Source: a virus
Lineage: Duplodnaviria; Caudoviricetes
DNA: 64,000 nt
Reading direction: 5' to 3' (one strand)
Virus record (IMG/VR): IMGVR_UViG_3300047160_009226
Location: 128,001 to 192,000 of that record
In this document: one piece after another, positions 48,559 through 63,224 of the stretch
How positions within the stretch are numbered: position 1 is the first letter of the stretch
How the letters are laid out: every line of letters starts with the position of its first letter
The notes under the pieces: model-generated
The model's database searches: none
Told to the model about the DNA's origin: nothing
The model's input: only the letters and a program-made list of their open reading frames with translations
Program-made: the position numbers and the translations under genes

Positions 48559-48794
48559 CCGCAAACGTCTGGTCCACCACACTTACTTTTTCCACAAATA
48601 ATGAGGTTTAAACCAGTGGGATGGACTAACTGAATATTGACGAAATTTCTTGACGACGCAGTTATCAATGCTCCCATACTGCCGTCGTAAAATCCACTCA
48701 TAGGAATGACTTGCCCCTTAAGAAGTAAGTCAGTCACACGATTATAAATATCCTCTCGTCTCTTTCTCCCTGTTCCGTGAATGGTACTAGGCAT
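48555..48794 (-). CDS. Hypothetical protein (79 aa, MPSTIHG...)
   Basis: AAGGAG RBS upstream of ATG 48794; overlaps the stop of the upstream gene. Confidence 0.5.
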   Translation of the reverse strand: MPSTIHGTGRKRREDIYNRVTDLLLKGQVIPMSGFYDGSMGALITASSRNFVNIQLVHPTGLNLIICGKSKCGGPDVCG

Positions 48795-49821
48795 GAACAA
48801 GCTTCTCCTTAAAGTATTTCCGATACTCCTGCCAATATTTAGGAACAGACCGAATAGCTGGCTCACCTTTAGGCCAAGGTCTGTCTATAGCATACACGGA
48901 GTAAAGAAAGGCAGCCCGTGGATCAGTAGCTATGTAATCTTCTGCCTGAGGTAAGGCCCCTCCACCAATCCCAATATAACGTGATAATCGCTCAGTGGAA
49001 ACTAATCTATTGTCAATAAGGTGCTGAAAAAACACAGGATACTTATGGGGATGTATACGCAAATGATAAATGCAGTAATCAAATATCTTGTCTTCTTTTT
49101 CAGATGGATAAGCTTTATCGGCCCAAAACTGAAGGATCCCTGATTTTAATAAAAGCATCAAAGTCTCGTCACTCAATTTAACCATTTCGTTACTAACATC
49201 TTTAATTTCACTGCCCCTGTAGTCCGCCAGGAAAAGTCTCTCTTTTCCTTTAAATGCAAGAAACAAACGACCTCTCTGAAGATAGCTCTTGGCCGTGTTT
49301 TCAGATCTAGTGCACCATGCAGTCCCTTGCGAATAACTGCATACTGCTTCCACAGCTGTTTCTGGATCAACTCCTTCACCACCAATCTGTAGTATTTTAT
49401 AAGGCCCATTATTATAAATGACCTTGACTGTCTCTTTGGCTTTCTTAGTTTCTTGTGCCTTGGATTTCAAATCCTCGTCTTTATGTGTAATCCAACTATC
49501 ATAAAGTTCATCCAAAGTTAACTTATTAATATCAGCAGGTAATCCTACATGCTCAAGCAATGCCGGTGACTTAGATACTTTTTGAAAAAATGCTAATGCT
49601 TGTCTAACACGTCCAAACCATTCATCAGCGGAGTTGCCGCCAGGATCAACAACATTTCTGATGATCCATCCCAGATACTTCCCCCCCGTCGGATCGGCTT
49701 TTGCAAGTCTCCGAAGCTCTTCTTCTGATATCTTATGGTTTTTAGCGTAGAACTGAATACGTTCTTCTAGTCCTGCTATTCGCAAAAGACGATGTGCCAA
49801 TCTAAGTGTTCTGGAAATCAT
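48787..49821 (-). CDS. Conserved-looking phage hypothetical protein (ADPT..KY..W and GTAWCT motifs)
   Basis: ADPTGGKYLGWI, GTAWCTR, C-terminal IATDP..AF.YS...PWPKGEPAI; basic RLAHRL N-terminus. Confidence 0.75.
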   Translation of the reverse strand: MISRTLRLAHRLLRIAGLEERIQFYAKNHKISEEELRRLAKADPTGGKYLGWIIRNVVDPGGNSADEWFGRVRQALAFFQKVSKSPALLEHVGLPADINKLTLDELYDSWITHKDEDLKSKAQETKKAKETVKVIYNNGPYKILQIGGEGVDPETAVEAVCSYSQGTAWCTRSENTAKSYLQRGRLFLAFKGKERLFLADYRGSEIKDVSNEMVKLSDETLMLLLKSGILQFWADKAYPSEKEDKIFDYCIYHLRIHPHKYPVFFQHLIDNRLVSTERLSRYIGIGGGALPQAEDYIATDPRAAFLYSVYAIDRPWPKGEPAIRSVPKYWQEYRKYFKEKLVHA

Positions 49822-49823
49822 GT

Positions 49824-52793
49824 TTATTCAATCGAAGTGACGGGTGCCAAAGAGACTGATACTGAAGGTTGTACATCAGGAATGAAGAGTTCCACTCCTA
49901 GATCAGTGCTCCACGTCTTTCTCTGCAAGTCTATCTGATGTGAAATAGAAGTAACAAGCCACTTGCTATTAACTGTATCCAATAACTCAATCCTAGCATT
50001 CCCGGGAATCTTACATCGTGCTGCTGAACGTGGTCTTGATTGTCCCTTAGAAATCTGAACTGCTAATCGTTGTATTTCATTAACATCTTTAACTATTTGA
50101 GGAATTGCATATACTGCCATCTTTGCCCAAGCAAATGTTGGATAAGTATCCAGATTCACAGTCATCATAACTGCTTGAGTTGGTGTAGTTGTAAAATTAG
50201 TAGCTAGAGGTTTTCCGATTTGTGGATATGCTACCAATGCAGAAATTATAATCTGATTTCTAACCCACGTATGATCTGGTTCATCCGAAAAAGTTTCAAG
50301 TGCAGAGTCAGGTAAGATCCAATTATTTCCAGTTGATTTCTGTACATCTATATAAATGCAAGTACCGAATCTATCAAAGTAATATAAAGTTCCTGCATAT
50401 TTAGCAATTGTATCCATTGCCTCAGAAACTGGTGTCCCCCTCGGAAAGTCTATAACCGGATTATTGATATTATAAGAAGAAATAAGCTTAAACGGTGTTG
50501 CCAAGCTTGTGTTAATAGGAAATCCACCATAAACCGCCATATAACGCATGGCATCACGATGATCATATCCATCGAAAAATGGTACATTGATTAATCCTAT
50601 CCCACCTTCAGAATTAATCTTGCTCTCTCGTCCTTTAAGAGGCATCTGAACCAGATTTTCTCCTGGATTATCTACTTCAGCATTGCCATAAGCAATTCCT
50701 GTGAAGATAATTCCAGGTATGGTGTTCGCTCCACCTATCACCTGAATCTGAATTGCTCCCACTTCCTGATATGGTCGTGGATCAACTGTTTGTGTCACAG
50801 GATCAAAACGATCCCATTCAATAGTCCCACTGGCACCATCCAGTGCTCTTTGAACATTGACCGATCGAATACGAGGTATTGAAATCGCAGCACTTGATAA
50901 GACTCCATCTTGATTCATAGGGGCATGTGTGACGAAGTCCTCGTCTATGATGACATTATCCACAATTATAGCACCCCAAACTTGTATAGGAACTCGCACA
51001 TCTGGGGTAATACTCTTAAACTCCATGGAGAAGCACGCAAACGGAGCTTGCCTATCCTTGACGATAGTACAGAGATGTGTCCGAAAATCTACAAAATTTC
51101 CACTCTGAAATCCAAATACCGGCATAGTGATTGCTTTAGACTTTGTCTCAACATAAAATACATTCTGATTAATAGGTTTTTCCTTAATTTTAGATTTCTT
51201 TCTCTTAGGTGGGAACAATGGCGGCGGTGGTGGTGGAGAGCCAGGTGGTGCAACAGGAACATACTCTGATGTTGTTAAATCCTGAGGACTAGCTGCTCCT
51301 GGATAAATAAAGTGATATCTTGAGAACTGAGGAAAATATATCGGTACAAATTTTAATGCTCCACCACAATGAGAGTAGAATACGCTTAATCGATTCCCCA
51401 TTGAAAATGTAGATGGTTGTCCAGTACCAGTATTCGATCTTGAAAGTAAACTTGTGCCTGTCTTCGAGTTGACAATCCTAACTCCAGGGGTCTTATATCT
51501 CTTGCCTTTACGCATGACAACAGTTTTAGGAATGTAATTAGGATCTCGGACATCATAGTCGCTCTGCAGAGGAGGATTAATTATGTTAGTAATTTCTGTA
51601 TTAATATTCAAATCTTCATCAATCGGAACAAAGCTAACAGTGTTACCCCAGTCAGAAGATTGAGGATTGCCATAAGAGATCAGTATCCCATTCCAAACTG
51701 GAATGAAAGTCAAAATATAAACTTTATCCCCATATCCATGAGTTAGCACATTAGCCACCGTCGGCTTTATATTAATCTTCTGAGGAGGATCCTTCCTCCG
51801 TATTGATACATGAAGCTCTTCTTGCCCTTCAAACAATTCTACTACTACAGTGTCAAAACCAAAAGTAATCTTAATTGACCATGCTGCAGCTTGAGATCTA
51901 TTATCGTTAGTTCCTTTCTTTATTCCAAAAATTAGCGAAAAAGCATTTAATGAATCTCCATTTTCAATTCCAGCATCTTTTTCCCGTTCAACAGGGTATA
52001 AATAAACATGATTCATTATCTCCTCATCACATGGCTGAACTTGAACATCAACAGCCCCATCCGTCCTCGGTGTAAGTTTCTCTTTCTGCTCGTCTTTGTG
52101 TTTCATCTGCCACCAATACGTCGTATTCTCTGGATCAGTCGTGTTACCGTCATTTAAAACTCCATTGCGATGTCTCCTAGCTTGAGGAGAGAAATAAGGA
52201 GTACTGATACATGAATTAATAGCATCGATATATACGGCTGAAGGAGTGTCCTTGAATGCCTTATACATAGACTTCATAAAAGGATCCCACTTATCTTTAT
52301 AACGTTTATAATTCGGACTCCCTGTATTAGGAACAACTCCTATTAGATCTCTAGGTGTATACTTAATTTCATCAAAAGGAAGATTCGCAGGTAAATCTGG
52401 GATAGGATTTTTAGAAGAACGAGGAGGAGGTGGTAGTAGAAGTGAAGGTGGAGGTGGCAGACTAGAAGATAGAAGTAGAGGTGGAGGTGGAGGTAACGGA
52501 CTAGAAGATAGAGGTGGAGGTGGTGGTAAGAATATAGTTCCAGGATCAGCATAATTCTTAATTAAAAAATGCGTTGGTGGCTTCGGCTTCGTCGTTAAAA
52601 CAATCAAGTCCTTAGTCTGATCTTTTCCAATAGGTTGCGTTCTCCTAGAATAAATATCCAAAATTGTAAAAATATTCGCCGGTACTGCGTCTATTGATGG
52701 AAGTTCTCCAGGAGGTGGTTGGGACGGACTCCCCACCTGCACCTGAATATTAGGTGCTACCTTCTCCAAACCCTCATCAGCATATGATGGCAT
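49824..52793 (-). CDS. Putative baseplate hub / central tail protein
   Basis: Directly follows the tape measure (TAATG overlap). C-terminal SEAMDTIAKYAGTLYYFDRFG and CKIPGNARIELLD...WLVTSISHQI resemble hub-type folds. Confidence 0.65.
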   Translation of the reverse strand: MPSYADEGLEKVAPNIQVQVGSPSQPPPGELPSIDAVPANIFTILDIYSRRTQPIGKDQTKDLIVLTTKPKPPTHFLIKNYADPGTIFLPPPPPLSSSPLPPPPPLLLSSSLPPPPSLLLPPPPRSSKNPIPDLPANLPFDEIKYTPRDLIGVVPNTGSPNYKRYKDKWDPFMKSMYKAFKDTPSAVYIDAINSCISTPYFSPQARRHRNGVLNDGNTTDPENTTYWWQMKHKDEQKEKLTPRTDGAVDVQVQPCDEEIMNHVYLYPVEREKDAGIENGDSLNAFSLIFGIKKGTNDNRSQAAAWSIKITFGFDTVVVELFEGQEELHVSIRRKDPPQKINIKPTVANVLTHGYGDKVYILTFIPVWNGILISYGNPQSSDWGNTVSFVPIDEDLNINTEITNIINPPLQSDYDVRDPNYIPKTVVMRKGKRYKTPGVRIVNSKTGTSLLSRSNTGTGQPSTFSMGNRLSVFYSHCGGALKFVPIYFPQFSRYHFIYPGAASPQDLTTSEYVPVAPPGSPPPPPPLFPPKRKKSKIKEKPINQNVFYVETKSKAITMPVFGFQSGNFVDFRTHLCTIVKDRQAPFACFSMEFKSITPDVRVPIQVWGAIIVDNVIIDEDFVTHAPMNQDGVLSSAAISIPRIRSVNVQRALDGASGTIEWDRFDPVTQTVDPRPYQEVGAIQIQVIGGANTIPGIIFTGIAYGNAEVDNPGENLVQMPLKGRESKINSEGGIGLINVPFFDGYDHRDAMRYMAVYGGFPINTSLATPFKLISSYNINNPVIDFPRGTPVSEAMDTIAKYAGTLYYFDRFGTCIYIDVQKSTGNNWILPDSALETFSDEPDHTWVRNQIIISALVAYPQIGKPLATNFTTTPTQAVMMTVNLDTYPTFAWAKMAVYAIPQIVKDVNEIQRLAVQISKGQSRPRSAARCKIPGNARIELLDTVNSKWLVTSISHQIDLQRKTWSTDLGVELFIPDVQPSVSVSLAPVTSIE

Positions 52794-55700
52794 TATGCAA
52801 AAAATCCTGGTTTTTGTGCGCGATTACTTACCAATATCGACTTATCTTCTACCTCTCCTTTAAACATTGCAGTGTCACTTTTAACAACTATTTCAATATT
52901 TCCACTGACATCAATCGCTCCAGCAGCTTTTGCAGCGGCCCTTGCTGCTTCTGGTGGCATTCCAGCAGCAAGGGCCGCCGCTTCCACAGGATTGACCCCA
53001 GGACGCCCCCCTGGACCAATCCCAATCGCCCCTCCCCCCACTCCAATTCCACCACCCCCGATAGCTCCCCTGATATTCCCTCCCATTGCCATTCGTGTTT
53101 CCATCATCGTCTTGGGTGCTCCCTGCCACATTTGCCCGAACGGATCTTTTACAACTTCACCAAAAATCCTAGGGCTAAAGTTAGGCAAGGCTTTGGTTCC
53201 ACCACCCATTCCGAAACTTGCTGCGATAGCTTTATCCAAGAAATCACGCTGCTTGCCCATGATGGCTTCTCTTAAAGCAGCGTCCTTCTGAACTACTGCA
53301 AGCTGTTTCTCCATTAACGGTGCACCAGTTAATCCAGCTGCTTTAGCTTGTGCAAATGCCTCTTGTGCGGCTTTCAAATCCACTCGTGATGCTTCAATAA
53401 TCTTCGACTGATATCCCATCTGTACCCGCCAGGATTGTCCTGTCCTAGCTGCCGTATCTCTCATGACCTCCAGCATACTCTTCTGAATTCCAGCCTGTTT
53501 CATCGTCTCTTCAGCTTCAGCTGTTGCAGCATGGACACGTGCTTGAACAGTAGCCTGAGCGACCTCATATTCTTTTTGTCTTAGTGCAAAAATCTTATCC
53601 TGAATTACTAGTACATCTGCTTCTCTGCCACCAGCTCTGGCTTCTGCCAGTCTTTGATTCAAATCATCAAGATCTTTCGCAAAATTCTCCATGAATTTAG
53701 CCTGCATCTGCTCAGCGGCTCGTCCTTGCTCTCGTGCTGTTTCGCCAATTTCTCCTGGTGTAGCCCCACGTTCACGAAGGAAAGACTCTCTAGCCCTTGC
53801 CAAACCTTGCTCTAGTTTACCTCTTCGATAGACTTCCGTCCTTTCATATGCTGTTATTTGAGCTTCCATGGCCGCGATATCAGCAGTACGCTTTTCAACT
53901 TGAAGCGCGTTCTCTCTTAATTTAAGATTTCGTTCTAACTGCTGTCCTTTCACTTCCAGATCTCGAGCCTCATTTATTAAATTTTGTCTTTCCTTATCTC
54001 TTAGTCCTTTTGTCTGAAGTGCTATGGCGATGTCCCTCTTTCTCGCTTCCAGTGTGTTCCTTGCCTCCTGTGCCTCTTCATTAAAGTTTTTAATCTGTTC
54101 CGCATAGGTCCGTGTAATCTCCTGTTGATACTCAGCGACATCCTCCCTTCTTCCTGTAATCGCTCCCGTTGCCTCATAACGAGCCTGAGCCCCCTGACGT
54201 TCCAATCCAAGCTGCCCCTGACGAGTTTCCATTCGTCCCATAATGTCTTCAACCTGACCTCCAACATTCAATTCCTTAAGTTGATTCTGCATGTTCTGAC
54301 TTTGTCGATTAATTGCATTCTGAAAAATAGCCCCAGTCTTTTGCAATTGATCATCTGTAGCTCCTCTATCTGCCATTTCCTTAAGTGTTTTGTCTCTCTG
54401 CATCTCAAGTCTGCTGATTTCATCAGTTGTTCCTTGAGTAATCTTACCAATACTAGCTGTAATATTTTCTCCGATTTTTTTCTGACCCTCTGCAAAACCA
54501 GCTCGATCAATTTCTCCCTTTCCAATTTCCATTCCTCGCCTAGCAGTTGCTGCCTCAATCGCTTCTGGCATCGTCTTTAAAGTAGCGTTCAAATTATTCA
54601 TATATTTATCAGAAGTCTGTATCGACGTGGTCATTTCTCTCGTCACGTCTCGCAGAGTGCGCTGTTCAGTCTGCTGATCCTTAGTAGCATCAGTATTCCC
54701 CATAATCCAACCACTTAAACTTTTCATTCCTGTTACAATATCACTACCATACTCTTTTGCGACGCCAGCAGCGCCTCCAACCGCGCCTCCAATCGCCGTT
54801 CCTGCACCAGGAAGAACCAATGATCCGATAAAAGCACCCGTACCCGCCGCTCCTGCAATTCTCCCTCCTTTTCCAGTATGTTTCAGAGCAATATCAGCCG
54901 TTGATCCTTTCGTTGTATATCCTCTCAGGGCCTCAGCCCCCATAGCAACACCTTCTCCAATAAGTCCAATTCCTAAAGGGCTCTTAGCAAAACGACCAAC
55001 CTTCCCCACAGCCCCCGCAAATCGACCTGCTCTCGCAACAGCGCCCGTGGTAGTTGCAACAGTACCAGCCTCGGCTGCACCTATACCGGCTTCGGCTGCA
55101 CCTAGACCGGCAGCTTGAGCCCCAGCCTTGGCCGCACCACCAGCAGCTTGAGCCCCAGCCTTGGCTCCTAAAAAGCTTGATAGACTCGACCAACCTGACT
55201 TCCCTGCTTCTGCAATTTTCTGAACATTACTAGCGATATCTAAAACTGGTGCAAGAAGTTGCGCACCTTCAGGTCCAATACCTTTATTAATCAATTCTCC
55301 CATTGCATGCTGAAAATCATCATATGTCTTTGCTACCGCAGCACCAGTTGTCTCAAACTTTGCTGCCTCTGCCCCTGCCTTTGGTTCTTCTCCTGGTACG
55401 CGACCAACAAGAGCCTCTTGTTGTTCCGGAGTTTGTGCTGTCCGTAATGCTTCGAGAATTGCCCCAAAATCTGCCTTCTCAGCTGTCACACCCTGAAATG
55501 TCTGACGAGTCATCGGAGTTGCAATAATCTGCTTAGCTGCCTCAATACCTCCTATCTGACCATAAATTGCTTGAAGCTGCTTCCCCATCGCTTCAAGTTG
55601 CTTGGTAGTAGCACCGAGTTTAAGACCTTCGGCCCATGTCTTGCCGAAGTCTTCAGCGGCTTTTCTGGTGAGATTTAGACTAGTGCGAAGTGATTCGAAT

Positions 55701-56161
55701 TCGCGGCGGGCTTGAGCGGATTGACCACCGAACTTCCCTGTTGCGTCAATCGCACGTTGAGTTGAAAGATTGTACTCGTAATACCTTTCAGATATACCCT
55801 TAATTGTCTCAGCATAAGATCTAGCACTATTAAGAGTGCTCCTAATCTTCATGCTATACTTATCGAATTGATCAAGCTCTTTAGCTCTCTCTTCGATAAG
55901 CGGGCGAAGTGCCTTAAGAGTGTCTCCATATGTCTTAGCTAGCTTTTTTTCTTCGTCCTCAAGATCACCGGTCGCTTCCCCGGCCTTCTTCTTTGCTGCA
56001 ATCTCTTTCTCAATGAGTTTTAGTTCTTGCTCCTGTATCTTTGCCTTTCTCTCAAGTGCATCAGTATACTCATCAAGATCCTTTTTTCCCATGCCACCTG
56101 CGCCACCACCGGCACCACCGGCACCTGCTCCACCACCAAGACCTCCAGGAGTGGCAGGCAT
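52793..56161 (-). CDS. Tail tape measure protein (1122 aa)
   Basis: Long Ala/Gln/Glu/Lys-rich helical composition, Gly/Ala-rich central hydrophobic stretch, located after chaperone-like genes and before the hub-like gene. Confidence 0.85.
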   Translation of the reverse strand: MPATPGGLGGGAGAGGAGGGAGGMGKKDLDEYTDALERKAKIQEQELKLIEKEIAAKKKAGEATGDLEDEEKKLAKTYGDTLKALRPLIEERAKELDQFDKYSMKIRSTLNSARSYAETIKGISERYYEYNLSTQRAIDATGKFGGQSAQARREFESLRTSLNLTRKAAEDFGKTWAEGLKLGATTKQLEAMGKQLQAIYGQIGGIEAAKQIIATPMTRQTFQGVTAEKADFGAILEALRTAQTPEQQEALVGRVPGEEPKAGAEAAKFETTGAAVAKTYDDFQHAMGELINKGIGPEGAQLLAPVLDIASNVQKIAEAGKSGWSSLSSFLGAKAGAQAAGGAAKAGAQAAGLGAAEAGIGAAEAGTVATTTGAVARAGRFAGAVGKVGRFAKSPLGIGLIGEGVAMGAEALRGYTTKGSTADIALKHTGKGGRIAGAAGTGAFIGSLVLPGAGTAIGGAVGGAAGVAKEYGSDIVTGMKSLSGWIMGNTDATKDQQTEQRTLRDVTREMTTSIQTSDKYMNNLNATLKTMPEAIEAATARRGMEIGKGEIDRAGFAEGQKKIGENITASIGKITQGTTDEISRLEMQRDKTLKEMADRGATDDQLQKTGAIFQNAINRQSQNMQNQLKELNVGGQVEDIMGRMETRQGQLGLERQGAQARYEATGAITGRREDVAEYQQEITRTYAEQIKNFNEEAQEARNTLEARKRDIAIALQTKGLRDKERQNLINEARDLEVKGQQLERNLKLRENALQVEKRTADIAAMEAQITAYERTEVYRRGKLEQGLARARESFLRERGATPGEIGETAREQGRAAEQMQAKFMENFAKDLDDLNQRLAEARAGGREADVLVIQDKIFALRQKEYEVAQATVQARVHAATAEAEETMKQAGIQKSMLEVMRDTAARTGQSWRVQMGYQSKIIEASRVDLKAAQEAFAQAKAAGLTGAPLMEKQLAVVQKDAALREAIMGKQRDFLDKAIAASFGMGGGTKALPNFSPRIFGEVVKDPFGQMWQGAPKTMMETRMAMGGNIRGAIGGGGIGVGGGAIGIGPGGRPGVNPVEAAALAAGMPPEAARAAAKAAGAIDVSGNIEIVVKSDTAMFKGEVEDKSILVSNRAQKPGFFA

Positions 56162-57173: not shown

Positions 57174-57986
57174 TTACACTCCCCTTTCTCGCTCTCTCCT
57201 ACGAAGTTGTGCTTCAATCATTCTCCGGTGAGTCTCCTCACTCACTTTTTTACCTTTCCTAGCTTCACTAAGTTTTTTCTTGTGTTCCTCACTAAGTGGC
57301 TTACCACGACGCGATTCACGAAGTTTCTTTTTATGCTCCTCACTAAGTTTCTTGTTAAGACCCGCCTCTCTTAATTTTTGTTTGTGCTCTTCACTAAGCT
57401 TTTTGCCACGTTGTGACTCACTCATTCTTCTAAGGGTTTCCTCACCATAAACTCTACTACGATTCGATTCACTTATCTTCCTTCGTGCTTCATCCGTATG
57501 CTTCATTCCACGGTGAGCTTCACTAAGCTTTTTCCTGTGCTCCTCACTTAGAAGTTTACCACGCTTAGCCTCACTCAGCTTCCGTCGTATTTCTTCCGGA
57601 TAACGTCTTCCAGCAAGTAATGAATTAAAGCCAAATCGCGGATCAGCAGCTTGATATCTAACAATATGTTCGTCCTCAAGAACTCCCAACAAACTTAAAT
57701 CACATACATATCCCATCACCTCAAACACAAACGCTTCTTCTCCACACTCATTCCACACCCTCTGAAGTCTGTAATTCTTATGCTTATTTAAGTTCAATGC
57801 ACTTCGATGTTGACTCCAACGACTACTAAAATTAATGGTGCTTCCAACATAAACCCGATTATCGATAAGACATCGAATCCAATAAATCCCTGACTCTATT
57901 CTCTGATCACCGATGATCCAAATAGGCAACTCCTCCGAGATCTGCGAAAGATCTGGAGGAGTGTCCGCCCGATGTTCTTCAGTCAT
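57174..57986 (-). CDS. GIY-YIG homing endonuclease with NUMOD3 repeats
   Basis: SGIYWIRCLIDNRVYVGST..RW..H; about seven (L)SEEHxKKLSE(A/S)-type repeats. Confidence 0.95.
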   Translation of the reverse strand: MTEEHRADTPPDLSQISEELPIWIIGDQRIESGIYWIRCLIDNRVYVGSTINFSSRWSQHRSALNLNKHKNYRLQRVWNECGEEAFVFEVMGYVCDLSLLGVLEDEHIVRYQAADPRFGFNSLLAGRRYPEEIRRKLSEAKRGKLLSEEHRKKLSEAHRGMKHTDEARRKISESNRSRVYGEETLRRMSESQRGKKLSEEHKQKLREAGLNKKLSEEHKKKLRESRRGKPLSEEHKKKLSEARKGKKVSEETHRRMIEAQLRRRERERGV

Positions 57987-58003: not shown

Positions 58004-58324
58004 CTAATCCCCTCTGCCGAACACCACCTTAAGAACTCCAACTACAAGCAGCACGAAAAACAGGATCGTATGACCAGAAAATCCTGTCCAGTTCTGAAAC
58101 CAAACCAACGGCAGACCTACTGTCAACACTACCAAAAGCAAACCACCACTGCCATAGTCAGTGATAGGCAGACTTCCGTTTTGTTTCCAAGCCTTCTGAG
58201 GATCATAAAACGGACTGTGCGGATTTCTCAGATTAAATGGCGAATCCGAATTGCGGGGATTCAGCAGATCGTCATCCTGTCTCATCGATCTCTCTTTCTT
58301 GGTTAAAACTTGGTTCGGGCTCAT
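58004..58324 (-). CDS. Small membrane protein
   Basis: Two C-terminal hydrophobic segments; N-terminal NPxNxxSPF repeat; has its own promoter motif. Confidence 0.65.
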   Translation of the reverse strand: MSPNQVLTKKERSMRQDDDLLNPRNSDSPFNLRNPHSPFYDPQKAWKQNGSLPITDYGSGGLLLVVLTVGLPLVWFQNWTGFSGHTILFFVLLVVGVLKVVFGRGD

Positions 58325-58340
58325 CGGAGCCCTCTCTAGT

Positions 58341-58366
58341 ACTATACCCCACTCGTCCCGAAATTT
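58341..58366 (-). promoter_or_regulatory. Putative phage promoter AAATTTC-N13-TATAGT
   Basis: Minus strand gag aaatttc gggacgagtgggg tatagta. Confidence 0.75.
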
Positions 58367-58368
58367 CT

Positions 58369-58608
58369 CTATTTTTCCCGTTCCAAAGTATCGGCCAACT
58401 CACCGTGAATACGATTCACGCCACGGTAATCAAAAATGGCCGGTACACCACCCGGCGCTATGTGTACCGCTACCCCATCACGGGTAACTAATGCTCTCGG
58501 AGAATCGACCTCCAACAACCGCCCGCTCACCAACTCAATAGCAAAAGGCTGAAACGGTTGTCGCTGCATAAAAGCATCAACGGCATTCTCAAAATTCTCT
58601 CGCTCCAC
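58369..58608 (-). CDS. Small protein of an uncharacterised family (PFxPFxIxLxSG), possible Sm/Hfq-like fold
   Basis: FENAVDAFMQRQPFQPFAIELVSGRLLEVDSPRAL; GTG start at 58608 after GGGGAGGGG; visibly GC-richer than the flanks. Confidence 0.75.
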   Translation of the reverse strand: MERENFENAVDAFMQRQPFQPFAIELVSGRLLEVDSPRALVTRDGVAVHIAPGGVPAIFDYRGVNRIHGELADTLEREK

Positions 58609-58672
58609 AACAATTCCCCTCCCCCTCAACTCAAGGATTTCTCCATTTTAGAAGTAACGAACCCTCTATGGT

Positions 58673-58698
58673 ACTATACTCTACTCATCCCGAAATTT
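58673..58698 (-). promoter_or_regulatory. Putative phage promoter AAATTTC-N13-TATAGT
   Basis: Minus strand gag aaatttc gggatgagtagag tatagta. Confidence 0.75.
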
Positions 58699-58701
58699 CT
58701 C

Positions 58702-58935
58702 CTACTCTGGCAAAGATTCATGTTTGCATTCGACGGCATCAATAGAACTCAACCTCATCAAGTTGATCCCTTTGCCAGGAATAGCCATGATCAGTAAATT
58801 GGGATAAGAATTTGTAACGAATATCTCAGATCCTTCTGTAATCTGATAAACTTTATTTGCTTTAGTTCTAATGGAATACGGGCGAGTCAAGTCTCCCTCA
58901 AGAATCAGGGTCTTAAAATCAGTAATAGTAGACAC
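58702..58935 (-). CDS. Small protein, probable distant homolog of 58369-58608
   Basis: RPYSIRTKANKVYQI...LMRLSSIDAVE has the same helix plus beta-strand pattern; GTG start with GGGGAG RBS. Confidence 0.65.
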   Translation of the reverse strand: MSTITDFKTLILEGDLTRPYSIRTKANKVYQITEGSEIFVTNSYPNLLIMAIPGKGINLMRLSSIDAVECKHESLPE

Positions 58936-59217
58936 TCAAAAATTCTCCCCGAAAACAGAATGAGACACTCCCTCTAATACTATACTCGACTCAAGCCGGA
59001 ATTTCTCTACTTTTTCCAAAAAAGAAACCCCTTCCAATCCATGGAAGGGGTCCTTGATCTCTCGATCTATTACCAACCATCCATCATCAGTCAGGATCCA
59101 GCACCAATCCCCGTCCTCCTGATATACCACTTCTCCTGGCCCAAAGTGCATATACTGCGTGAATGCGATCATTAGACTGTGAATCTGTGATTCCATATGA
59201 AGGGAGCATAACGTCAT
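58936..59217 (-). CDS. Hypothetical protein (93 aa; start uncertain, competes with overlapping ORF 59087-59314)
   Basis: ORF track; its stop abuts the start of 58702-58935. Confidence 0.45.
   Translation of the reverse strand: MTLCSLHMESQIHSLMIAFTQYMHFGPGEVVYQEDGDWCWILTDDGWLVIDREIKDPFHGLEGVSFLEKVEKFRLESSIVLEGVSHSVFGENF
58979..59004 (-). promoter_or_regulatory. Putative phage promoter AAATTCC-N13-TATAGT inside the 3' end of the upstream ORF
   Basis: Minus strand gag aaattcc ggcttgagtcgag tatagta. Confidence 0.7.
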
Positions 59218-59319: not shown

Positions 59320-60201
59320 TTAACTATATCCTGCGTCAGGTACCCCATTTAAGAATATATTAACATACTCTACATAGGCATTTGCTTGATTTGCTACCGC
59401 TGCATTACTAGAAGAAACTTCATAAGTCACCGGAGAATTGCGATCACCATACGTAATGTTTTCAGAGGTCACAACCATCTCAGCATAGTTCACATACCCA
59501 AACCCAATCTTGATCAATGTATAGTAAGATAAGGCAACCGCTGTTGTTAACTGAAGAGTAAATTCCGAGTCAAGTGCCCGATAGTAGGCCGGTAGCATGT
59601 TCGGATTATTAAACCAATATGGTTGTAAGTTGACATTATGGCTCAGACTCCAGGACAATACAAGATCATTTCCAGTCGTCCAGGATGCTACCGGCGTGCT
59701 AACACCTACCGTAGTTATGGGAACCGATGAGTTCACCGCGTCAATCGTCGACTTACCCTCTAGAGTGAACGTAAGTCCAGCATTCTGATTTCCGTTCACC
59801 GAGAACTGGTTCCAAGGTAGGCTGTTCCCGTTCGGATTGTCAAGGAAATAGTTGGCGTTTCCCTGGGAAATGAGCAACTGGCGGAAGTTCACCCCCCGAG
59901 CCGATCCCTTTAAAAGCTCCAAAAGCCCCAAAGTCGCGGCAGTAATCTCACCCCCCACCGACCAGGTAACCTCCCTCGTTCCAGCCGTGTGAATCGCCTT
60001 CTGCTTGGGACCGACTCCAGGAGTAAGTGCGTACTTCGTGTAATTCGGACTTCCGGTGTCATTAAATGATGCGTCAGTAGAGAGTAATGTCTCCATTCCA
60101 CACATAGGATGAATCATCTGCACCAGTCGCCGAAAACCGGCTACTTGTCTTGGATATATGACCGGAGCAACAACTACATTAGGATCAAACGTTTGAGGCA
60201 T
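59320..60201 (-). CDS. Tail tube-like protein (paralog 1)
   Basis: Beta-strand pattern with two tube-like halves (AGTREVTWSVGGEI; SWSLSHNVNLQP...ALDSEFTLQL); location in the tail block. Confidence 0.65.
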   Translation of the reverse strand: MPQTFDPNVVVAPVIYPRQVAGFRRLVQMIHPMCGMETLLSTDASFNDTGSPNYTKYALTPGVGPKQKAIHTAGTREVTWSVGGEITAATLGLLELLKGSARGVNFRQLLISQGNANYFLDNPNGNSLPWNQFSVNGNQNAGLTFTLEGKSTIDAVNSSVPITTVGVSTPVASWTTGNDLVLSWSLSHNVNLQPYWFNNPNMLPAYYRALDSEFTLQLTTAVALSYYTLIKIGFGYVNYAEMVVTSENITYGDRNSPVTYEVSSSNAAVANQANAYVEYVNIFLNGVPDAGYS

Positions 60202-60210
60202 CTATTTTAG

Positions 60211-60834
60211 TTATCTCCTCATCACCTGTGGTTTGATTCCCGTCATCTCTTGGACATGCTTACGAACCGATTGCTCCTTGAGATTTAAAGACATCGCCTC
60301 GTTATAACAATCCATGACCTTCCGGATGACAGCATAAGTTTTAATCGGGATATCCCCGATAGTAGGCCATGCGGGAACACCAAGTCGCTCATGGATATTC
60401 ATCGCTGTGATCACTTCTTCCAGAAGAGGATGAGGATCCCGGACCGAACCCCCATCTTGCCTCCATAACTCCATGCATTCCCTCCCAATCTGATATAAGT
60501 CTCGCCTCGATAATGTACTCGTCTTCAAAAACTGTCTTACCAAGTTCGTTGGAATCATTGCGGGGGCAAATTCCATAATATCTTTGAACGAATCGTCGGA
60601 TAAAAGATTTTCTGAGAACGTCAAGGGTCTTGAGGTCAGGGATGTTTCCGTTAGGAAGATTCGCCATAACTTTTTCTCTTGGGTAAAGAGGTTCTGTTTT
60701 GAACTGCCGAGCCTCTTCCATAAAGATACTGTAGGAAACCTCCATCTCGCAAAATAACGTATAAATCCGAGTTTATCTTTTTCTGACGTGCTCCAAATGC
60801 CCTTCTCTGACCTTGCCCAAACTTCTGTGATCAC
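60211..60834 (-). CDS. Putative tail assembly chaperone (family member C) with C-terminal extension
   Basis: Start moved from 60990 to GTG 60834 (GGAG RBS, GTGA overlap with the upstream stop); WRFP and LLSDDSFKDI motifs; C-terminal IGDIPIKTY segment. Confidence 0.6.
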   Translation of the reverse strand: MITEVWARSEKGIWSTSEKDKLGFIRYFARWRFPTVSLWKRLGSSKQNLFTQEKKLWRIFLTETSLTSRPLTFSENLLSDDSFKDIMEFAPAMIPTNLVRQFLKTSTLSRRDLYQIGRECMELWRQDGGSVRDPHPLLEEVITAMNIHERLGVPAWPTIGDIPIKTYAVIRKVMDCYNEAMSLNLKEQSVRKHVQEMTGIKPQVMRR

Positions 60835-61046
60835 GGTACTCCCAGGTACTCCCATAACCTGTTCATGATCGACTTCCTCACCAGCGTGGGAATCCCCTTG
60901 AAATCCTCCCAGGACTCCACCATGAGCTGATTGTTGGAGTGCTGTAATCTCTTGCAGAAATTGTGCAACTTCCGGTGAGGGGGATTCCATACTCCCATTT
61001 CTCCAATTTCAAGCACAAAGATCGAATTCCTCTCTACAATCATCAC
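60831..61046 (-). CDS. Short partial duplicate of the C-terminal half of 61043-61483 (family member B)
   Basis: FCKRLQHSNNQLMVESWEDFKGIPTLVRKSIMNRLWEYLGVP versus FCKRVSKYNKMLTDESWEDFKRLPPLVRKAIINKLWRSLGGP; coupled by stop/start overlaps at both ends. Confidence 0.7.
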   Translation of the reverse strand: MMIVERNSIFVLEIGEMGVWNPPHRKLHNFCKRLQHSNNQLMVESWEDFKGIPTLVRKSIMNRLWEYLGVP

Positions 61047-61483
61047 GGTCCACCTAAAGATCTCCACAATTTATTAATGATCGCCTTCCTAACCAGCGGT
61101 GGAAGTCGCTTAAAATCCTCCCAGGATTCGTCCGTTAGCATTTTATTGTATTTGCTCACTCTTTTACAGAAACCTTTTAATCGTAGATGAAGATTCCAGC
61201 GGATCAAACATCTTTTAATTCGCCACTCGGAGATCACGTCATTATCTACATAGTGAATCCCCCGAACCTCGTCATAGGTAGTTGCATTCTTCTTGGCGTC
61301 AAGTTCCTCGCTGTACTCAGGATATTCAAATTCGATCGTAAAACCCAGGGTCGATAATTCTTTCCGGGCGACTGGACGCAGTGTCTTATTCGCCATGATG
61401 CGTAAATAGAGCTTAGTCCGGAATCGTTTGCGCTCGACTTCCGGTTTACCATTAGTTTGAGCAGAGAAGTCTTTCCTAATCAT
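61043..61483 (-). CDS. Putative tail assembly chaperone (family member A)
   Basis: Follows the tube-like gene; FEYP and MLTDESWEDFKRLPPLV motifs. Confidence 0.65.
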   Translation of the reverse strand: MIRKDFSAQTNGKPEVERKRFRTKLYLRIMANKTLRPVARKELSTLGFTIEFEYPEYSEELDAKKNATTYDEVRGIHYVDNDVISEWRIKRCLIRWNLHLRLKGFCKRVSKYNKMLTDESWEDFKRLPPLVRKAIINKLWRSLGGP

Positions 61484-61532
61484 AATTAACTCTCAACCTC
61501 TTGAGTAACATACATCTTACTTTTTCATCTTT

Positions 61533-62420
61533 CTAATTAGAACGAGGAAGTGATCCTTGTGCGAAATAGGATGCTTCCCATTTTATCGTTTCGTTCGGAC
61601 CGGCTATTCCAGTAAATTGTCTCTGTGGATCTCGTATCAGATTATCAATAGTGATGGTATCAAGAGGTCCCATACCAGGAGCGACACCAATCTGAAGCTG
61701 TAAAGTTCCTATATCTTTTGGCCTGTTATTGCGTGCTGCAAGCCAGGCAATCGTAAAAGTGATATCAAGATCGCCGGCTGAAATCAATGCAGGGTTAGGT
61801 GGCTGTGTGTACCCCGCTAGAAAATGTTGGTATTGCCATTGATTATTAAAAGTCAAAGACCAATTCATCGGAATCGCATTAGATGTAATTACTGTAAAAT
61901 TAGGAATAGTCTGCCATCCAGCTATGGGCCGATAATTATCACTCATCGGAAATAGCGGAGGTACCGGTTGTCTCTGTAATACTTGTGGTGAAGCCACTTC
62001 CTTCCATACCCACGCTGTCATGTTAATGTTTAAACTGACTAGTGATTCTGGAGAACCCGCTATCGTCAACTCATCGACATACCCTGTTCCACTGTAACCT
62101 TCCCCAACCGCAGGATAAATCTCAAATGAAACCTCTGGAACCATATCCATAAGATTCAAGGTTCTCCATTCGTAAGTCAAAGCCTTAACCAAGGACATTG
62201 TAGCAGGACAGATAAATGTGGCAAAACTTACAGGTAAAGACCTCCTATTCTTAACTGCTAATGGACCTACTGCTAATGCAGGGTTATTGTGATAAGCGCC
62301 CCCCGCTTTAATCACATTTTCACTTTCTGAAGCACTCCCTGGAAGAAGAGGAATAGGTATGCCATTCACAATGGCATAGCCGGAATACCCTAACCCATCG
62401 AAAATATCGGTAGCTGGCAT
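61533..62420 (-). CDS. Tail tube-like protein (paralog 2)
   Basis: Similar length (295 vs 293 aa) and motifs to 59320-60201 (NWSLTFNNQWQ...AGDLDITFTI). Confidence 0.65.
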   Translation of the reverse strand: MPATDIFDGLGYSGYAIVNGIPIPLLPGSASESENVIKAGGAYHNNPALAVGPLAVKNRRSLPVSFATFICPATMSLVKALTYEWRTLNLMDMVPEVSFEIYPAVGEGYSGTGYVDELTIAGSPESLVSLNINMTAWVWKEVASPQVLQRQPVPPLFPMSDNYRPIAGWQTIPNFTVITSNAIPMNWSLTFNNQWQYQHFLAGYTQPPNPALISAGDLDITFTIAWLAARNNRPKDIGTLQLQIGVAPGMGPLDTITIDNLIRDPQRQFTGIAGPNETIKWEASYFAQGSLPRSN

Positions 62421-62429
62421 GATTTACAC

Positions 62430-63224
62430 TCAAGCAGTCCGTGATTTCACCCATAATATCTCTGTTCTACGGCTTTTAGCCCCCTTGAGGGGACTGCTAA
62501 AAGCTGCGATGTCGATCTCTACACGATCCCACCCAGAAAGTTCTTTATCGTACATATGATGTGCATATCCACTCAAGATAACACTTCCCTTCAGGTCTTT
62601 AATTAATCTGAGCAATCGGAGATGATCGAACGATAATAACTCATTGGTATACATATTATGAGCCACTCGCGTTGACCTATAATAAGGAGGATCAAGGTAG
62701 AAAAATGTTTCAGTAGAATCATACTCAAGAATGACGTCGAGAGCAGATTTCGAAACTATTCTCACCCCCTTTAATCTCCGTGCTACAATAGGAATATTAT
62801 AGGGCAGGGTTTCCCAAGATTCCCCTTTCTCATCTGTTTTCACCCAACTCCCACATCCAGAAAACGACATGCGGTGACGAATCAACAAATTCACTGCCCG
62901 TGTCAATTCATCACCTTGACCAATCGCAGATCGGGCAGCTAAAAAAGTTTCCTTCTCCCATTTCGTCTGCCGAATCCTCTCCATTAACTTTTCCGGTGTC
63001 TCAACTAGCACATGATAAAAATTAATGACCTCCTTATTAATATCACACGCAATTTCAATGTCTGATCTGAACTTATTTAGCAGGACACTCAGACCTCCAG
63101 CAAATCCTTCCACGTATGTGGTATGAGGCGGGGACATCTGAAGAATACGTCGACAAATTATGGTCTTTCCCCCGTAATAATTTAAAATGGGGCTAACTTT
63201 TTGAGCTACATAATTCTCAATCAC
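62430..63224 (-). CDS. Dam-like (D12 class) DNA adenine methyltransferase
   Basis: YYGGK, YVEGFAGGLSV, DIN, LDPPY, VILSGY. Confidence 0.95.
   Translation of the reverse strand: MIENYVAQKVSPILNYYGGKTIICRRILQMSPPHTTYVEGFAGGLSVLLNKFRSDIEIACDINKEVINFYHVLVETPEKLMERIRQTKWEKETFLAARSAIGQGDELTRAVNLLIRHRMSFSGCGSWVKTDEKGESWETLPYNIPIVARRLKGVRIVSKSALDVILEYDSTETFFYLDPPYYRSTRVAHNMYTNELLSFDHLRLLRLIKDLKGSVILSGYAHHMYDKELSGWDRVEIDIAAFSSPLKGAKSRRTEILWVKSRTA

Follow-up and report, generated by a model that had tools for sequence, protein, structure and literature searches.

A Phage Gene with Planctomycetota Relatives and a Predicted Sm-Type Small Barrel Fold

The DNA examined here (the window, 64,000 nucleotides) comprises bases 128,001-192,000 of the virus record IMGVR_UViG_3300047160_009226 and carries two small genes, gene A and gene B, which a preliminary description had read as two Sm/Hfq-like proteins. 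For gene A, structural modeling confidently predicts a small beta-barrel of the Sm type with an N-terminal helix, the same fold as that of Hfq. Judged by its sequence and by the signature motif, the product is not a recognizable Hfq or Lsm protein. Gene A is a phage-carried member of a new, uncurated family within this known fold class, and sequence comparison indicates that it was apparently taken from Planctomycetota bacteria. Gene B is not demonstrably related to gene A, and we treat it as a separate orphan reading frame (ORFan) rather than as one half of an "Sm pair". We consider it probable that gene A is a host-derived accessory gene with an Sm-type fold, equipped with a phage promoter of its own and serving to bind some macromolecule, with gene B as a matter apart.

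Gene A and its predicted fold

The preliminary description had located both open reading frames (ORFs) correctly and had quoted their sequences without error, for gene A the strings PFAIELVSGRLL...IFDYRGVNRI; both genes lie on the minus strand.

58369-58608, minus strand: gene A, 79 amino acids, GTG start; seen as an ORF with homologues, structural model, fold matches and codon score

The GTG codon at 58608 stands 7 nt past the Shine-Dalgarno-type sequence GGGGGAGGGG. A mechanically called ORF of 86 amino acids begins at a TTG codon at 58629. We rejected this longer form because the first residue of the homologues corresponds to the GTG at 58608, which makes the 79-residue form the correct one. 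To score codon usage, we trained on 70 long ORFs of the phage, for which in-frame pieces of 80 codons score 0.35 on average (5th percentile 0.15) and off-frame pieces -0.65. With this measure, gene A scores 0.295, the best value among its six frames. Since a family profile finds 822 cluster representatives (see below) and the codon score is of this size, gene A is certainly a real gene. Both genes start with GTG, follow a Shine-Dalgarno site of their own and resemble the phage in codon usage; their GC content is uneven (50.8% in gene A, 38.5% in gene B).

An AlphaFold2 model of gene A, built with an alignment of 80 family sequences, reached a predicted local distance difference test score (pLDDT) of 93.8 and a predicted template modeling score (pTM) of 0.81. 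The model shows an N-terminal helix and a bent five-stranded barrel; its elements are, in order, a helix (residues 3-14), strands at 22-26, 31-34, 40-43, 46-51 and 55-60, a 3-10 turn, a strand at 64-68 and a short C-terminal helix. The Sm variant of the small beta-barrel has been defined by the order N-terminal helix, beta1, beta2 (bent), beta3, beta4, 3-10 turn, beta5 (bioRxiv 10.1101/140376), and the DSSP assignment of the gene A model contains these elements in this order.

Fold comparisons returned mainly Hfq. When the Protein Data Bank (PDB) was searched with Foldseek, the YgdI/YgdR-like protein 2rb6 came first (E 0.012), followed by dozens of Hfq chains (E 0.014-0.04; template modeling (TM) score by target 0.55-0.66), which make up most of the list. 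Among Swiss-Prot models, the top 22 rows were all Hfq. Using VIA-align, we obtained the highest scores with designed small barrels (Z 8.1 and 7.2), while Hfq structures scored Z 6.0-6.2 with a root-mean-square deviation (rmsd) of 2.4-2.6 Å over 60-62 residues. One such superposition places residues 4-71 of the model onto residues 6-66 of Hfq (Z 6.0, rmsd 2.4 Å). The alignment with E. coli Hfq that had been drawn by eye in the preliminary description has no sequence statistics behind it, but the structural superposition covers the same span. An equivalence between His61 of the family and His57 of Hfq was considered and dropped, as the register could not be fixed. Further VIA-align matches were SspB (Z 6.1 and 5.7, 69-72 residues aligned), the WYL domains of DriD and PafBC (Z 5.6-5.7, with BrxR and CapW also listed), Rof/YaeO (Z 4.6) and Lsm proteins (Z about 4).

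In the AlphaFold DB clusters and the ESM Atlas, the best rows were uncharacterized proteins with TM scores of 0.7-0.85. The commonest phylum among the best ESM Atlas rows was Planctomycetota, with three clusters at a shape TM of 0.85, and the first named family in the shape search was DUF903. BFVD returned solely uncharacterized small phage proteins at E values of at least 0.004. The suspicion of an Sm-type barrel in gene A has thus held up: the predicted fold belongs with the Sm/SH3-like barrels, and Hfq heads the Swiss-Prot list and makes up most of the PDB list. A four-copy multimer prediction from the family alignment, run without controls, gave ipSAE values of 0.02 and 0.05 (mark 0.42), which count neither for nor against oligomers.

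A Planctomycetota family and the host clue

Neither gene A nor 80 of its relatives matched an entry in Pfam, NCBIfam or PADLOC, no match to a defence family was found, and the matches to PHROG were insignificant. A word-indexed search with gene A found five relatives only, at 49-73% identity; the 73%-identical one lies on another, metagenomic contig. We then relied on an exhaustive profile search that covered 1.84 billion representatives of clusters formed at 50% identity. This search retrieved 822 proteins at E<=1e-3, 335 of them at E<=1e-10, most of which are 70-115 amino acids long. Gene A matches the family profile (PFxPFxhxL..G...E[VI]D) over its full length (profile positions 1-75, E 6.3e-43). 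The best-conserved residues of the family are P18, F19, F22, G29, D35, G45 and A47, and R16, R31, E33, R43, D60 and H61 are common. Gene A retains most of the near-invariant and best-conserved ones, namely P18, F19, F22, G29, D35, R43, G45, A47 and D60. A sizeable family (822 clusters at 50% identity) that stands outside all curated libraries now has a fold assigned to it.

Gene A and nearly all of its relatives are single-domain proteins. About 11 of the 150 best profile matches are hit in two or three stretches, and the three of these that we read clearly consist of two or three domains in tandem, a hint that domains of this family work side by side. We also observed, in two independent assemblies, a protein in which a family domain forms the N-terminal part of a fusion with an M35 aspzincin metallopeptidase domain (HELTH motif); the fusion gene adjoins genes for ankyrin, WD40 and DnaJ-like proteins. 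Distant relatives of an "HPE type" (PFxPFxIxLxDG...HPE...DLLLV) occur on planctomycete chromosomes as tandem arrays of two to three small genes or as two-domain proteins.

Species-representative genomes contain 46 loci with a gene A relative, of which 40 belong to Planctomycetota and two to Verrucomicrobiota. The remaining four are metagenome-assembled genomes labeled Alcaligenaceae or Chloroflexia, where we took the bin labels as given. The Planctomycetota loci span Thermoguttaceae, Tepidisphaerales, Phycisphaerales, Gemmatales, Pirellulales, Isosphaerales and Planctomycetales. Five carrier genomes contain 4-17 family matches each, made up of 2-6 strong copies and members of the distant HPE branch, sometimes in tandem arrays. 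In an even sample of the phylum, just 6 of 121 Planctomycetota genomes have a family match at E<=1e-5. The family is therefore centered on Planctomycetota, multi-copy where it is present and patchy within the phylum. The preliminary description had called a PFxPFxIxLxSG family abundant in Planctomycetota genomes. In kind this statement was sound, since the nearest relatives of gene A are overwhelmingly from this phylum and so inside the Planctomycetes-Verrucomicrobia-Chlamydiae (PVC) group, but the family occurs patchily (6 of 121 sampled genomes).

Among viruses, we found no gene A relative in 50,697 deposited phage genomes, and a search of IMG/VR with the family returned no related phages. 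Likewise, no related phage or cassette was found when protein P0002 was searched in metagenome contigs or when a 293-residue protein from the neighborhood was searched in IMG/VR. In a phylogenetic tree, gene A and the metagenomic sequence that is 73% identical to it form a pair (SH-aLRT 95), whose long stem arises from a polytomy of Planctomycetota sequences. Since these sequences do not separate in the tree and their classes are intermixed, the host clue extends to the phylum level only. It is nevertheless a concrete one for a large and very divergent soil phage.

The Pfam model of Hfq reached its cut-off in only one of the 121 sampled Planctomycetota genomes (27.8 bits against a cut-off of 27), and control genomes behaved as expected. 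In the five carrier genomes, neither the Pfam Hfq nor the LSM model found anything. Because the sampled Planctomycetota are essentially without canonical Hfq, interference of gene A with a host Hfq, as the preliminary description had envisaged for host RNA chaperones, is unlikely. The family thus belongs to a phylum in which post-transcriptional regulators are poorly known and canonical Hfq is nearly absent from the sampled genomes.

Promoter copies, gene B and the surrounding DNA

The carrier of gene A is a large (about 200 kb) uncultured soil phage. The virus record totals 200,689 bp and is estimated to be 91% complete; the minus strand carries all sizeable ORFs of the window. The features around gene A are as follows.

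59016-59053, minus strand: intrinsic-terminator-like hairpin with a 12-bp stem, 6 GC pairs and a T-run, just upstream of P1
58978-59007, minus strand: promoter-motif copy P1, 43 nt upstream of the gene B start and inside the 3' part of ORF 58936-59217
58702-58935, minus strand: gene B, 77 amino acids, GTG start, ORFan, predicted all-beta with low confidence
58672-58701, minus strand: promoter-motif copy P2, GAGAAA-N17-TATAGT with extended GTATAGTA, directly after the gene B stop
58340-58369, minus strand: promoter-motif copy P3, beginning at the last base of the gene A stop and 16 nt upstream of the ORF for a 106-residue membrane protein
58004-58324, minus strand: third cassette, basic protein of 106 amino acids without a family match, whose C-terminal half contains two hydrophobic segments
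57174-57986, minus strand: GIY-YIG/NUMOD3 homing endonuclease with five NUMOD3 repeats, directly downstream of the cassette array
62430-63224: DNA methyltransferase

A 30-nt sequence of the form GAGAAATTYCGG...GTATAGTA occurs three times in this array, at 59007-58978, 58701-58672 and 58369-58340, where chance would give none. We had considered these repeats as ends of paralogous genes or as homing sites and dropped both ideas, as the sequence matches 17 other promoter-like sites across the genome. The composite motif [AGT]RGAAW-N16-18-TATAGT has 20 copies on the coding strand of the whole genome and none on the other strand, whereas shuffled sequences contain 1.4 on average and at most 4; for GTATAGTA alone, the counts are 18 on the coding strand and 2 on the other. 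The copies lie in the window at 58340-59007, 28160 and 21002, and in genome coordinates at 74519-100027 and 198153. Every one of them stands 3-60 nt upstream of an ORF start. The layout of the motif is GAGAAA, 17-nt spacer, G-TATAGT-A, with an A-tract further upstream. On these sequence grounds, the 30-nt repeat is a non-canonical phage promoter motif. Fourteen of the 20 copies fall at 74-100 kb of the genome among many small ORFs, in a region whose genes match the PHROGs for DNA helicase, Dda-like helicase, ATPase, HNH endonuclease and 2OG-Fe(II) oxygenase. The -10 element of P2 ends 64 nt upstream of the gene A start codon, and 43 nt before the rejected TTG.

We read gene B, gene A and the small membrane protein gene as three separately promoted accessory cassettes beside a homing endonuclease. 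The latter is recognized by Pfam (GIY-YIG, 8e-9; NUMOD3, 2.3e-15) and by phrog_314 (1.1e-35), and several HNH and homing endonucleases also occur at 76-82 kb of the genome. The terminator-like hairpin would insulate the cassettes from the transcription unit upstream, and we infer that the cassettes are expressed together with the replication genes. The non-canonical promoter motif of this phage would then drive small accessory cassettes inserted among large genes.

Gene B starts with a GTG at 58935, 9 nt past the sequence GGGGAG, and contains RPYSIRTKANKVY...LMRLSSIDAV. It is probably a real gene, because none of the other five frames reaches its codon score of 0.209 and because a separate promoter copy and Shine-Dalgarno site precede it. 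No homologue was found among proteins of near or greater length, in IMG/VR or in deposited phages; PVC clusters reach a feature score of 0.85 in the Atlas, which we take as a lead only. The preliminary description had seen in gene B the same layout as in gene A, a likeness that proved no better than chance. BLASTP between the two proteins gave E 3.9. Using hhalign, gene B was aligned to the family over the very segment that had been aligned by eye, with a probability of 0.6%. In a comparison with two family profiles, the main 80-sequence alignment and the distant HPE-type branch, gene B reached hidden Markov model scores of -1.0 and 0.8 bits, values that 82 and 34 of 1000 shuffled sequences equaled or exceeded.

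The structural evidence on gene B is no closer to an Sm barrel. Its single-sequence model (pLDDT 57.9) is all-beta and has no N-terminal helix; among its six longer strands, five occupy about the same positions as strands of gene A. Foldseek returned nothing below E 0.35 with this model, and the best VIA-align scores (Z 6.0) went to Ig-like domains and are within noise. The Atlas shape search listed FecR, NusG_II and similar families at TM scores of about 0.5. What this poor model resembles, within the noise band, is thus an Ig-like sandwich and not an Sm barrel, and the Sm-like reading of gene B is unsupported.

Upstream of gene B, an ORF of 93 amino acids (58936-59217, minus strand) ends in a TGA that abuts the GTG of gene B. 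Its codon score of -0.09 is ambiguous, and its 3' third contains the strong terminator-like hairpin and P1. Because of this score and of the two elements inside it, the ORF is doubtful and may not be a gene.

Contigs of four soil metagenome runs contain short fragments identical to a stretch of the window, without informative joints. The large proteins presumed to be structural (window 48787-56161 and 59320-62420, including a protein of 1122 amino acids rich in Ala, Gly and Glu) matched no PHROG family. For this reason, the phage is far removed from described phages, and the assignment of these large neighbors to the tail is unconfirmed.

Proposed role and comparison with known systems

Gene A is probably a host-derived accessory gene of the roughly 200-kb phage, encoding a 79-residue protein that is predicted to be cytoplasmic, soluble, acidic and made of a single Sm-type small beta-barrel. 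The phage probably expresses it from its own copy of the GAGAAA-N17-TATAGT motif, as one of three back-to-back units of promoter and gene. Since the motif otherwise marks the replication and small-gene region, the product is likely to be non-structural and made early or in the middle of infection. By analogy with other stand-alone barrels of the Sm fold, the protein probably binds a macromolecule on the barrel surface. Single-stranded RNA would be the best single guess for this partner, because of the usual partners of the fold and the tandem-domain relatives; a host protein would be the next, given the SspB and Rof precedents, the acidic charge and the peptidase fusion. Given several paralogues in the host, the phage copy may take their place or compete with them.

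Several results weigh against this account. Gene A has no match to the Pfam Hfq model (PF17209) at E<=1, none of the 80 family members matches Hfq at E<=0.1, and a PDB search with the profile of these 80 sequences brought up no Hfq chain at E<=10. Gene A lacks the YKHAI signature of Hfq (Sm2 signature [YF]KHAI), which belongs to the proximal RNA site: at the turn ahead of the last strand, gene A has FDYRGV and the family consensus FDHESV. The structural scores of gene A to named families lie in a band (Z 6-8) where merely a common arrangement may be shared, and we therefore take them as support for the fold and not as a demonstration of homology to Hfq. At several of the better-conserved polar positions, gene A departs from the consensus (R31 to L, H36 to S, H61 to Y and E62 to R), and because of these changes the phage copy may not do the job of the host proteins. 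The family is acidic (median pI 5.3, median net charge -3.3), which speaks weakly against RNA binding; archaeal Sm proteins are likewise acidic. The 46 bacterial loci show no conserved neighbor or operon partner that would point to a pathway. Their neighbors are unrelated housekeeping genes, including those for T2SS-F, PSCyt2/PSD1, peptidase M16, LeuA, a response regulator, RpoC and an FtsX-like protein. Finally, the timing of the promoter is deduced solely from the position of the other motif copies.

Gene A could also encode a barrel that, as a monomer or dimer, docks on a host machine (for instance a protease, termination factor or defence protein) and serves as adaptor or inhibitor in the manner of SspB or Rof. 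In VIA-align, SspB and Hfq reach equally high scores, Rof/YaeO is listed as well, and the acidic surface suits binding of protein better than of RNA. Small early phage proteins commonly act as inhibitors, and the fusion of one family member to an M35 aspzincin peptidase, which two independent assemblies contain, fits the same picture. Nevertheless, we regard an adaptor as unlikely: gene A has no sequence relation to SspB or Rof and lacks the ClpX-binding tail by which SspB is defined, no conserved partner gene stands beside the family in bacteria, and the fold scores fall in the noise-prone band.

That gene A is a true, highly diverged Hfq/Sm homologue, which forms hexameric or heptameric rings and acts as an RNA chaperone to reprogram or poison host riboregulation, seems to us improbable. 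Hfq is the commonest fold match and has the same order of helix and five strands, and tandem two- and three-domain family members exist. In Hfq, an arginine rim is located at the junction between the helix and the first strand, a position at which the family consensus is also basic (R16, R/K17, R20). A niche may even be open, given the single Hfq match among the 121 genomes of the phylum and the lack of Hfq and LSM matches in all five carriers. However, most of the arginines at this junction are missing from the phage copy (QRQPFQ), and there is neither a sequence signal to Hfq or Lsm nor the Sm2/YKH signature. With 2-6 strong and many distant copies per genome, the family is also unlike hfq, which is usually single-copy, and a family detected in no more than 6 of the 121 genomes sampled cannot be the general RNA chaperone of the phylum.

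We give little credence to the idea that the cassettes are functionless passengers, either host DNA of recent capture or cargo carried along with the neighboring homing endonuclease. This idea draws on the adjoining GIY-YIG gene, on the ORFan nature of gene B and on the uneven GC content of genes A and B. In contrast, gene A keeps most of the near-invariant and best-conserved residues of its family, its product is confidently modeled as folded, and it has phage-like codon usage, a Shine-Dalgarno site and a promoter; moreover, the 73%-identical relative sits on another contig.

A stand-alone WYL-like sensor barrel for single-stranded nucleic acid or a nucleotide ligand is very unlikely. The WYL domains of DriD and PafBC do show the highest identity of the VIA-align list (20% over 66 residues), with BrxR and CapW listed beside them, but gene A has no match to Pfam WYL (PF13280) and no defence-island context. 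WYL domains are normally fused to helix-turn-helix (HTH) and WCX domains, an HTH-WYL-WCX architecture that is absent from the single-domain gene A and from nearly all of its relatives.

Minor tail or assembly proteins, a reading of genes A and B suggested by their position between large presumed structural genes only, are scarcely credible: each gene has a promoter of the kind used in the replication region, a terminator-like hairpin stands ahead of the pair, the relatives of gene A are located on chromosomes next to housekeeping genes, the neighbors have no PHROG match that would confirm a tail role, and the same stretch contains a DNA methyltransferase and a homing endonuclease.

A bolder extension of our account, in which we place little confidence, would make the PFxPF family a cryptic, far-diverged Sm/Hfq lineage of ring-forming RNA chaperones in those large-genome Planctomycetota that carry it, with the captured and altered phage copy as an early-expressed dominant-negative subunit or as a private RNA chaperone. 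If this were true, capture of a cryptic Sm lineage would amount to a phage takeover of host riboregulation. Should the family bind RNA as rings, it would add a new Sm lineage to those of bacteria and a takeover gene of a new kind to those of phages; should it not, gene A would be one more small barrel with an unknown partner.

To return to the favored reading of gene A as a host-derived accessory barrel, four known systems invite comparison. With Hfq, its commonest fold match, gene A shares the size class, the helix, the five bent strands and the 3-10 turn before the last strand. It differs in that its family is acidic and has neither detectable sequence homology to Hfq nor the YKHAI motif, and in that the family is multi-copy and patchy whereas hfq is usually single-copy.

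YgdI/YgdR-like proteins (DUF903, PF06004; PDB 2rb6, 3fif, 2k57 and 2rd1) provide the best Foldseek match (rmsd 1.8 Å over 49 columns), and 2rb6 is also the sole sub-threshold match (E 0.21) of the family profile in a sequence search of the PDB. These proteins are exported lipoproteins without an N-terminal helix. In contrast, gene A opens with the amphipathic helix ERENFENAVDAF and has no hydrophobic leader, signal peptide, lipobox or cysteine. Gene A and its family do not match Pfam DUF903, so that the likeness is one of fold only.

The substrate-binding domain of SspB, Rof/YaeO and WYL domains have structural scores comparable to those of Hfq (Z 6.1, 4.6 and 5.7, respectively) and show that stand-alone or modular barrels of the Sm fold bind peptides, proteins or single-stranded DNA or RNA. 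Gene A is not related to them in sequence and lacks both the SspB tail and the HTH and WCX partners of WYL.

The array as a whole resembles the "moron" or early-gene cassettes of phages in its own promoter copies, the terminator-like hairpin upstream, the small host-related cargo and the variable GC content. Unlike such cassettes, those described here stand three in tandem outside a prophage and carry the motif of the replication region.

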